Below, piece by piece: positions 30,001 to 31,738 of a stretch of DNA of 47,442 nucleotides (position 1 is its first letter; each line of letters starts with the position of its first letter). The stretch is from a virus (Duplodnaviria > Heunggongvirae > Uroviricota > Caudoviricetes), in IMG/VR virus record IMGVR_UViG_2913112809_000004, positions 1-47,442 of that record. The stretch is one strand, 5' to 3'. Made by a program: the position numbers.

Positions 30001-31738
30001 TAAAAAACAACATCCCATCGAAGGAATCCGCAAATGCCTTTTGTGTGACATAGTCTGATATGAAAAGCGAAGAATTAATGTACGGGAATAAGGATTACCA
30101 GAAATTCAGATTAACTTTCCTGTTTAAACGAGAAAAATTAATTTATATACTTTTTGCACTTCCTGAACGGGGGGGAACGGAAATTCGTTATGTTTCACGG
30201 ACTTTGTCCAGCGACCTTAATCCGACGGTCGCGTTTTTTTTTCGTCATATTCATCGTTGACTTACATGGCATTGCCACACGGACATTATCAGTGTCCGTG
30301 TATTTTTTTGAATTCAACACAAAAAAAACCGCCTGGTGCGGCGGCTGAACAATGCTGAAGATGAATCATTTTTATTGTAGTGAAATTGAGATGTTGTGGA
30401 CTTCCCTGAATATCTGACTTTATGCCTGATATTGTGGTTCCAAAAACAACAATGTAAACCACCCTCAATACCGGGGAACATCTCTTTGGTGTTATTTACA
30501 ACACCGGAATGATGCATTTCCGACTCTCCAAAGAAACACAATATTTCTACCGAAAATACACCATTCCGCTATTGTAAAATAACAGCGCAAACCACTGACT
30601 AGCCAATTACAAATCGGTGTTCCTGTTTCCTGAGCAATGTTTACTCTTCATATGAGTTCTTGTCGGGGAATAAAACCACTCACCCGGAAGACAGACGTAT
30701 AATAACAAGGAATAAAATCACTTCAACTGTAATAATCTGAAAAATGATTCTTGCCACATGAAAACACCCACCAACCGTCCATTACCACAAATAAAAAAGC
30801 CTTCACCGCGTCGCGGTTTTCCATTTTCTTTACTTCTACAATAGCCTTACGGGTTTTCTTTTTGAAAATCCCAAACATCGTGAATTTTCCTTTTAGTGGG
30901 TGAGCCTCCGCCCGGGGTGACCAGTCCACAGAGAAAGTCACACTGATCATCCCGTAAGCTTACCCCTGAAAGGTTCTGTGGTTTTTGATCCGCGCCGGGC
31001 GTAGCGCAAAGAAATGAAATAAGCCTTATCTGAAATTAAGGTTAATCTGAGGATTTAAACCATTCTAAATGCTTAGTAGTATAAACATGCCTATTGAAAG
31101 AGGCAGATACTAATCCTTCTTCGCGGACCTTGTCCCGCGGCTTTAATCCGACAGCCGCGTTTTTTTTGCTTGTATATTTCCAAATGATGCAAATATAAAA
31201 GGCTCACCGAAGCGAACCTGATTCAAGCGTACTTGCTGCTACAGCAGGGCTATAATACCCCAACCACATAACGCCATGTGTTCTTTTCTAATGAGTTGGT
31301 GATGGTTTTATGCAAGCAAAAAAAACCGCCTGTTAAGGCGGTGGTCAAATCAGTAAGTGCTGAAGAGTATTATTATAATATAGGTGAGGTGTCGGGTGCC
31401 TCCCGAAATATCTGACATTCCATCAGATACTGTAGTTTCCCCGCTAAACAACCACTAAAACCACCCCCGCACATGGGGTTCACCTCATTTTGTGATGTTA
31501 ACAACATCGGGATAGTGCATAATCAGCCCCTGCCAGGAAATATCAAAAATCCCACTAATAATGCACTATCCCGATAGTGTCAAAAAACACAGCACTGAAA
31601 CTATAACTGGTCTCCGTTATAATTCGGGGGAGCGTTAAAGGAGTATACGAGACCTTTCCCCGCGAGAAAAAACGCCAGTGCTGAAAAACCTGTGCCTCAT
31701 TTGTTTTGCTGGAGCGGGTAGCGGGAATCGAACCCGCG

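Follow-up and report, generated by a model that had tools for sequence, protein, structure and literature searches.

What is encoded by two short plus-strand units that lie between positions 30124 and 31167 of a 47,442-nucleotide (nt) viral DNA, IMG/VR record IMGVR_UViG_2913112809_000004? This whole stretch (the window) is a lambdoid prophage with its late operon on the minus strand, and the units, numbered 1 and 2 in order of position, run against that operon. We consider it most likely that they are genes for regulatory RNAs of about 80 nt, members of an Escherichia family without a name. Specifically, we propose two autonomous, lysogen-expressed, Hfq-type base-pairing small RNAs (sRNAs) that carry different targeting domains on a shared scaffold and stand tail-to-tail with the terminator tR' (probability about 0.68). 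An earlier inspection of this DNA (the sequence-only reading) had proposed sRNA-like units, and the promoter spacing, the covariation, the strand-biased G.U pairs and a 3' end mapped in K-12 agree with it in that the units look like independent plus-strand small-RNA genes.

Two gene-sized units with a shared promoter and 3' module

On re-reading of the sequence, the hexamers, 16-nt spacers, stems, U8-9 runs and coordinates of the sequence-only reading were all correct (Table 1). The distance of about 85 nt that it gave from the -10 hexamer to the shared 3' module is actually about 48 nt, whereas a length of about 80-85 nt holds for the whole predicted RNA. Each unit would form an sRNA gene of about 160 bp, in which an AT-rich, conserved upstream element precedes a sigma-70 promoter (TTAAAC, 16 nt, TAnnAT) for a transcript of about 79-85 nt. 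The predicted transcript comprises a 5' hairpin, a variable single-stranded targeting domain and a conserved scaffold, namely a GGAC-UUU-GUCC mini-hairpin, a terminator stem with two inner pairs closing an AAUCC pentaloop, and U8-9. The 3' module is a 48-nt direct repeat (30194-30241 and 31120-31167, 85% identity), and its covariance model scored 69.2 bits for unit 1 and 69.1 bits for unit 2 (E about 5e-27 each). Besides the units and a degenerate copy at 30265-30309, the best remaining match in the window scored 10.5 bits. The window contains TTAAAC-N16-TAnnnT three times, where 0.42 occurrences are expected.

For the collection of relatives, IMG/VR was scanned with a loop-agnostic pattern in which loop and upper stem were unconstrained (GGACYTTGTCC-N-GCG-N16-CGC-N1-6-TTTTT), which returned 78 loci; a loop-anchored pattern returned the same loci plus one. 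Across the family the promoter consists of TTAAAC, exactly 16 nt, and then TAATAT, TAGTAT, TATGAT or TATACT, with TAATAT in most relatives where unit 2 has TAGTAT. Both hexamers and their spacing are kept among 32 distinct upstream sequences with four unrelated spacers, so that the conserved 16-nt spacing noted from two copies is borne out in the relatives. The upstream consensus TAAGnCTTAyCnGAAATTAAGGTTAAT is common to prophage copies and to a chromosomal copy described below (the core copy).

The degenerate copy behind unit 1 has a GGC-AUU-GCC mini-hairpin, a CACGGAC/GUCCGUG stem and U7, and probably represents either a reserve terminator or what is left of a tandem sRNA. Its counterparts were located among the comparison loci (numbered with L) at L002 3395-3439, L004 3152-3196 and L095 1678-1724. 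L024, L025, L029 and L031 carry a different second module (GGACTTTGTCC-CACGAG-TATTCCAGGATG-CTCGTG-T7), 26 nt past the first. Given these second modules after unit 1 and in relatives, the module tends toward tandem occurrence. A relaxed mini-hairpin plus U-run pattern, applied in search of wider relatives, gave only chance matches and tandem second modules.

Covariation and strand bias support a plus-strand RNA

Because RNAalifold mis-paired the 5' region of the mixed alignment, in which the hairpins differ in length, the structures were named by hand and their pairs counted over the family alignment. On these structures 97% of the cells were paired, against 34-50% in slid controls. Four covarying pairs, changed on both sides, were found in the terminator and inner helix, and three more in the 5' hairpin within the common class of sequences. 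The strand test gave 97.0% of cells paired on the plus strand versus 89.5% on the minus strand, with 29 G.U cells that pair only on plus. The compensatory terminator stems seen earlier between the two units (GCGACC/GGUCGC versus GCGGCU/AGCCGC) were confirmed, and the covariation extends to the relatives.

The 5' hairpin begins about 7 nt downstream of the -10 hexamer and takes the forms GUCUCC/GGAGAC, GUCCCC/GGGGGC, UCUCUCU/AGAGAGA, GCCU/AGGC (unit 2) and GGCUUU/AAAGCU (core); unit 1 has two hairpins. The variable domain of 20-40 nt is U/C-rich, largely single-stranded by prediction and conserved within each of four classes: the common AUACUUAUUCUUCUUCA type (unit 2 is a variant), the unit-1 type, the L029 type and the core type GGGAAAUUCAACAACUCUUGGAAAUU, the last being identical between E. 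coli and Escherichia sp. E1V33. The family scaffold then runs from the mini-hairpin GGAC-YUU-GUCC through the terminator to the U-run. In several common-class members (L010, L004, L013) pairing is possible between the U/C-rich domain (UUCUUCUUC) and the 5' hairpin's purine-rich 3' arm (GGAAGGAGA); this modelled alternative fold of similar energy may represent self-sequestration of the seed.

The sequence-only reading also singled out a 10-nt loop identical in both units. The same TTAATCCGAC indeed stands in both, but it is partly helical rather than free and varies in relatives, which have UUAAUCUGAC (core), UCAAUCCGAC (Escherichia sp.), UAAAUCUUAC (E. albertii) or UUAAUCCGAU (L071). Every variant keeps the inner pairs U-A and U.G, C-G or A-U, closing an invariant AAUC(C/U) pentaloop, so the conservation of the loop, which emerged although the first search pattern placed no constraint on it, is partly structural. 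When the loop-anchored scan left the mini-hairpin free, one variant of the mini-hairpin was returned (L096, AGAC-GUU-GUCC). Conservation of the apex and mini-hairpin at the level of sequence points to a recognition function. The kissing interaction suggested for the loop found no counterpart within the prophage, as the loop's complement occurs nowhere in the window except at the units themselves.

No support for toxin-antitoxin loci

Duplicated small RNA units in antisense orientation had invited an analogy with type I toxin-antitoxin loci of the Ibs/Sib or Zor/Orz kind, here in tandem and with a toxin peptide that had escaped recognition. A full-length sok antitoxin RNA does lie at 34455-34632 on the minus strand, in the early or nin region (Rfam RF01794, 97.4 bits), and the prophage therefore holds a real hok/sok-type locus 3 kb from the units. 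However, neither the open reading frame (ORF) lists nor the family alignment contained a conserved small hydrophobic ORF, as expected for a toxin of about 18-60 amino acids, on either strand, within or beside the units, in keeping with the earlier remark that no toxin peptide ORF is evident. The sole recurrent ATG yields a 7-codon ORF (MDFVPRL) that is missing in about half of the family (CAC for CAT), and the Rfam toxin and antitoxin families do not match the units. The analogy thus fails on the absence of a conserved small ORF, and we regard this explanation as exceedingly improbable. A coding reading of the units was likewise rejected, since the frames through the module are broken by stem covariation, by changes in U-run length and by the CAC/CAT alternation.

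An RNA 3' end at the core copy in K-12 and its recovery with Hfq

The module, the promoter and 45 nt upstream were found in 5301 of the 5426 complete E. coli genomes (97.7%), K-12 and BL21 among them, in the gap that separates yodB from tRNA-serU. In MG1655 this core copy occupies about 2,043,025-2,043,181 (+) of NC_000913.3 (L006 1526-1681). Its homology to the prophage copies (about 71%) is confined to some 160 bp, which begin at about -80 and stop where the terminator ends; by alignment this region corresponds to exactly one gene-sized cassette. SerU-type prophages with genes for type II heat-labile enterotoxin (LT-II) integrate immediately beside the yodB-serU core copy.

Two published data sets cover this copy. 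In the Term-seq data (Adams et al. 2021, PMC7815308, supplementary file 1), two of three condition lists include an 'orphan' RNA 3' end at 2043181(+), flanked by AATTATGGACTTTGTCCCGCGGCTTTAATCTGACGGCCGCGTTCCTTTTTTGACTC, and this end falls within the U-run of the core-copy module. Hfq-CLASH (crosslinking, ligation and sequencing of hybrids; Iosub et al. 2020, PMC7213987, supplementary file 7) reports the feature int-1073-1, 2043157-2043181(+), as one half of a chimera, the other being mreC (7 reads, p 2e-86, duplex -18.8 kcal/mol). Thus, the K-12 module holds the in vivo 3' end of a plus-strand RNA, and this end was crosslinked to Hfq. The listed rows of the RIL-seq (sequencing of ligated, interacting RNAs) tables for enteropathogenic E. 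coli (EPEC) do not mention yodB.

The Term-seq end makes the K-12 module a bona fide terminator, and the module might then be a terminator or insulator only, halting plus-strand read-through into PR'/tR', with an incidental promoter and no functional RNA. The tandem second terminator-like modules and the other terminator facing the module fit such a role. Yet there is no upstream plus-strand gene to terminate; conservation extends over the promoter hexamers with their spacing and over 45 nt upstream, and the 5' hairpin covaries. Moreover, the invariance of the mini-hairpin and the AAUCY apex goes beyond the needs of a terminator, and the 3' end was recovered in an Hfq-crosslinked hybrid. We therefore consider an insulator without a functional RNA distinctly improbable.

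Distribution of the family in Escherichia

The cassette of about 160 bp was located at about 80 prophage loci of IMG/VR and, by BLAST, in some 300 complete E. coli genomes. Unit 2 represents the common allele, of which 297 E. coli genomes hold at least 80%, always in an unannotated gap between the tRNA/STnc100-like region and the TerB or holin gene. The 5' targeting domain of unit 1 is a rare allele, found in L041, L049 and L079 and absent from all 5426 complete E. coli genomes searched. A diverged form occurs in E. albertii NBRC 107761 (L090 3543-3628, minus strand), a unit-1-type copy with compensated loop changes that persists beside a decayed Phage_holin_8 pseudogene and trkG; here the sRNA gene has outlived its prophage. 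In a scan of one genome per species, true matches came only from Escherichia and Shigella, the others being three chance matches and one contaminated metagenome-assembled genome. The O157 genomes sampled have the core copy only. A related element, published as a partial sequence under the name 'Escherichia phage SerU-LTIIb' (KU052038), has a module copy (65.8 bits) and a degenerate second module between the tRNAs and a holin gene.

A fixed antisense slot and the origin of the pair

In prophages the gene is always antisense and lies between a tR'-like terminator and the first late gene. A minus-strand tR'-like terminator was found downstream of 71 of the 77 prophage copies, at a distance of 78-86 nt in 58 of these. 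Beyond the sRNA promoter, the first gene in relatives encodes a Phage_holin_8 holin, a TerB-family protein or EssD, and starts about 210-260 nt from the module. The orientation described earlier holds in that both units oppose the late operon and are convergent with tR'-like terminators and STnc100-like leader RNAs of the minus strand.

This constant position raises the question of whether the units work chiefly in cis, by pairing as antisense RNAs with the Q-antiterminated late transcript, to which they are fully complementary at 200-280 nt upstream of the start of holin or TerB. In that case they could dampen leaky late and lysis expression (and that of LT-II downstream) in the lysogen or set lysis timing, in the manner of lambda OOP, of anti-Q RNA or of a type I antitoxin guarding the holin. 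The slot between tR' and the first late gene is invariant whatever type of holin follows, the complement of the module is present only on the late-transcript strand, and the sRNAs PasA and PasC use the same slot in other prophages. On the other hand, the yodB-serU core copy, present in 97.7% of E. coli, has no antisense partner and has nevertheless retained its promoter, its structure and its targeting domain, the complementary region covers no ribosome-binding site, and a variable 5' domain on a conserved scaffold is the signature of a trans-acting sRNA. A cis role is compatible with base-pairing sRNAs and does not exclude them. A purely cis-antisense role would leave the stand-alone core gene unexplained, and action mainly in cis appears rather unlikely.

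The regions downstream of the two units are about 70% identical to each other and to single-copy prophages, and each consists of a tR'-like terminator, an STnc100-like leader and a long hairpin. The window therefore contains two diverged alleles of a whole 'leader/tR' + convergent sRNA' module, juxtaposed by mosaic recombination. The tandem duplication proposed in the sequence-only reading is accordingly not a recent one, as diverged alleles of the whole module were brought together. The same two-copy layout was found in the IMG/VR loci L041 and L079.

The long hairpins (31498-31583 and 30493-30581) are homologous, with 29-nt arms that are 83% complementary. They are matched by the same microRNA-precursor models, lie on the 5' side of the minus-strand STnc100-like leaders and overlap a promoter-like site (31546-31519, TTGATA-16-GATTAT).

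Proposed mechanism and points against it

Since their promoters face the late operon and are independent of Q, the RNAs should be made in the lysogen. The scaffold would most likely combine the functions of an intrinsic terminator, an element of RNA stability and a handle for Hfq, of which termination and association with Hfq were recorded in the core homologue of K-12. The U9 and U8 tails of the units reach the 6-7 U or more expected at the terminator of an Hfq-dependent sRNA. Since the one scaffold carries different targeting domains, the units would be two riboregulators with different trans targets among host or prophage mRNAs. In the lysogen, the tail-to-tail arrangement with tR' would stop the convergent transcripts before they overlap. 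After Q antitermination, the late transcript would cross the sRNA gene in antisense, and the anatomy suggests that promoter interference and RNA titration would follow, so that the sRNAs would be lysogeny-specific.

Several observations weigh against these sRNAs. The in vivo data are those of the K-12 core copy, the prophage copies being known from sequence, and comprise on the Hfq side a single CLASH hybrid among the matches listed, in which pairing is via the terminator arm and not the variable domain. The K-12 3' end lies 283 nt past the yodB stop, so a long yodB 3' untranslated region is possible instead of a transcript from its own promoter, and a transcription start site for the K-12 copy, sought in the Cappable-seq and SMRT-Cappable-seq supplements, gave no match. 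The -35 hexamer is a weak one, matching TTGACA at 3 of 6 positions, and the single sequences do not stand out by their minimum free energy (MFE), with z-scores of -0.6 and -1.7. Neither the mini-hairpin nor the stem base varies in the family set, an invariance partly imposed by the search patterns and so uninformative on structure. RNAduplex scans of both targeting domains against the window were no better than shuffled controls.

A bolder possibility is that the near-invariant scaffold is a recognition module common to the chromosomal E. coli sRNA and its prophage paralogues. Prophages would plug in new targeting domains and compete with or hijack the partner of the sRNA, be it Hfq or a dedicated factor, during lysogeny, and Q-driven antisense transcription would be the off-switch. 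Host reprogramming, lysis control and LT-II toxin expression would then be coupled; we regard this extension as speculative and unlikely.

Setting of the units in the prophage

The features of the locus are collected in Table 1. The distance from the holin start to the -35 hexamer of unit 1 is 164 nt. A terminator-like hairpin on the late-operon strand (GGGCCGCTGGTGGCC plus a T-run, 29984-29999, minus) lies about 25 nt upstream of the holin start codon. The TerB remnant below unit 2 retains the N-terminal MFGIFKKKTRKAI.EVKKMENRDAV, is truncated after about 25 codons with the remainder replaced, and gave no match in a Pfam search. At the corresponding position TerB is intact in L001 and L002, and in the window the second leader/tR' module fills the space. 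The minus-strand leader of the remnant (30885-31000), between the unit 2 promoter and the TerB start, is well conserved in L001 and L002; it looks structured (CCACAGA...TCTGTGG arms) and may be a separate leader element.

Table 1 Features of the two units and their surroundings in the window
Feature	Position	Strand	Remarks
Unit 1 conserved upstream element	30079-30123	+	about -80 to -36; ...TTACCAGAAATTCAGATTAAC...; by homology to the consensus element
Unit 1 promoter	30124-30151	+	TTAAAC 30124-30129, 16-nt spacer, TATACT 30146-30151; 9/12 sigma-70 match
Unit 1 predicted RNA	30158-30242	+	about 85 nt; predicted start 7 nt past the -10 hexamer
Unit 1 5' hairpins	30159-30175 and 30176-30189	+	followed by a linker
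Unit 1 mini-hairpin	30199-30209	+	GGAC-UUU-GUCC
Unit 1 terminator	30211-30232	+	stem GCGACC 30211-30216 / GGTCGC 30227-30232; apex AAUCC 30219-30223
Unit 1 loop	30217-30226	+	TTAATCCGAC
Unit 1 U-tail	30234-30242	+	T9/U9
Degenerate second 3' module after unit 1	30265-30309	+	26.5 bits, E 1.3e-8; also predicted as a plus-strand terminator
Unit 2 conserved upstream element	31010-31054	+	GAAATAAGCCTTATCTGAAATTAAGGTTAATCTGAGGAT; consensus match
Unit 2 promoter	31055-31082	+	TTAAAC 31055-31060, 16-nt spacer, TAGTAT 31077-31082
Unit 2 predicted RNA	31089-31167	+	about 79 nt; three hairpins; MFE equals centroid
Unit 2 5' hairpin	31089-31104	+	GCCU/AGGC
Unit 2 U/C-rich domain	31105-31124	+	AGAUACUAAUCCUUCUUCGC; predicted single-stranded
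Unit 2 mini-hairpin	31125-31135	+	GGAC-CUU-GUCC
Unit 2 terminator	31136-31159	+	stem GCGGCT 31137-31142 / AGCCGC 31153-31158; apex AAUCC 31145-31149
Unit 2 loop	31143-31152	+	TTAATCCGAC
Unit 2 U-tail	31160-31167	+	T8/U8
tR'-like terminator facing unit 1	30322-30346	-	GCCGCC..GGCGG + U8; about 80 nt past the unit 1 terminator
More diverged STnc100-like homologue opposite unit 1	about 30350-30600	-	by alignment
tR'-like terminator facing unit 2	31317-31345	-	about 150 nt past unit 2
STnc100-like leader RNA, convergent partner of unit 2	31349-31512	-	sub-threshold: 34.5 bits (gathering score 47), E 2.4e-5
LT-II A subunit gene	27769-28629		last in the listed late-operon order, after the GH108 endolysin
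GH108 endolysin	28743-29345	-	late operon
Holin (Phage_holin_8)	29571-29960	-	first late gene below unit 1; E 1.4e-22
Truncated TerB-family gene	30723-30881	-	below unit 2; start 30881/30878
tRNA-Thr and tRNA-Gly	31710-31863		between the Q-type antiterminator and the STnc100-like RNA
Q-type antiterminator (DUF1133/Phage_antitermQ)	32185-32856	-	late operon

Comparison with known RNAs and significance

A cmscan of 29900-31700 against Rfam 15 with E up to 10 gave no plus-strand match at the units, prophage sRNAs of the IpeX type included, and a scan of the window, L006, L004 and L001 at Rfam gathering thresholds found only tRNAs and sok. The RefSeq records examined (MG1655, BL21, UMNK88 and others) have nothing annotated at the locus, and no name for the family was found in the searchable literature, which omits many subscription papers.

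Among known RNAs, STnc100 (RF02076) and PasD share the locus near the Q gene of lambdoid prophages. They are convergent partners of the units and not their RNAs, being encoded on the opposite strand with another structure and a length of about 160-200 nt. StxS of Shiga toxin (Stx) phages is a PR'-tR' transcript of this kind. Esr41 (RF02676), AgvB (RF02702) and AsxR (RF02703) are Hfq-binding sRNAs that occur as morons in lambdoid prophages of enterohaemorrhagic E. coli (EHEC), but they have no covariance match at the units. The type I toxin-antitoxin repeats (Ibs/Sib, Zor/Orz, hok/sok) are likewise small, duplicated, antisense-oriented RNA genes with strong terminators, whereas the units have no toxin ORF and overlap the 5' region of no coding mRNA. 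Lambda OOP and anti-Q (PaQ) are short phage antisense RNAs against a major operon that are able to pair in cis; they differ in location and sequence, and the present family also exists as a stand-alone chromosomal gene.

The closest likeness is to PasA and PasC, sRNAs of EPEC E2348/69 prophages (Pearl Mizrahi et al. 2021, PMC8550237; Zhu, Shabalina & Storz 2026, doi 10.64898/2026.05.13.724894), which are Hfq-dependent, with a 'seed' overlapping the terminator reported for PasA. Both groups are RNAs of about 80 nt in lambdoid prophages, located between a cargo gene or tR' and the holin-lysozyme cassette and directed against the late operon, with TerB, RusA and STnc100/PasD-type RNAs nearby, a conserved 3' end, a variable 5' part and several copies per genome. 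By position the units would qualify as PasA/PasC, being intergenic, antisense to the late operon and adjoining the holin-lysozyme cassette. Identity with them was rejected, as the sequences are unrelated: the module model reached 11 bits (E 0.05) at L005 3769-3819, and PasA, as read in L005, lacks the promoter, mini-hairpin and loop of the family. Furthermore, the Pas papers report no core-genome copy, whereas the present family has one in almost all E. coli. In E2348/69 PP2 a second PasA-like terminator unit lies downstream of PasA (L005 3769-3960, minus; GCCAGCGTC...GACGCTGGC plus a T-run), and the present family is therefore not alone in having tandem sRNA-like units in this slot.

By these comparisons the units would be a solid new family of a familiar kind, the prophage sRNA, and not a new kind of system. 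If confirmed, it would add to E. coli an sRNA family without a name, including a K-12 chromosomal gene that appears in published maps only as a Term-seq 'orphan' 3' end and an unnamed Hfq-CLASH intergenic feature. Lying on the Q-dependent path to the lysis and LT-II genes, the RNAs are therefore candidates for linking lysogeny, lysis, toxin expression and host regulation. The core/prophage pair would offer a clean case of mobile elements swapping sRNA targeting domains on a kept scaffold. In lambdoid prophages the slot that lies antisense between the lysis genes and tR' would, if confirmed, be a general docking site for sRNA genes, occupied by PasA/PasC in EPEC prophages and by the present family in LT-II and other prophages.

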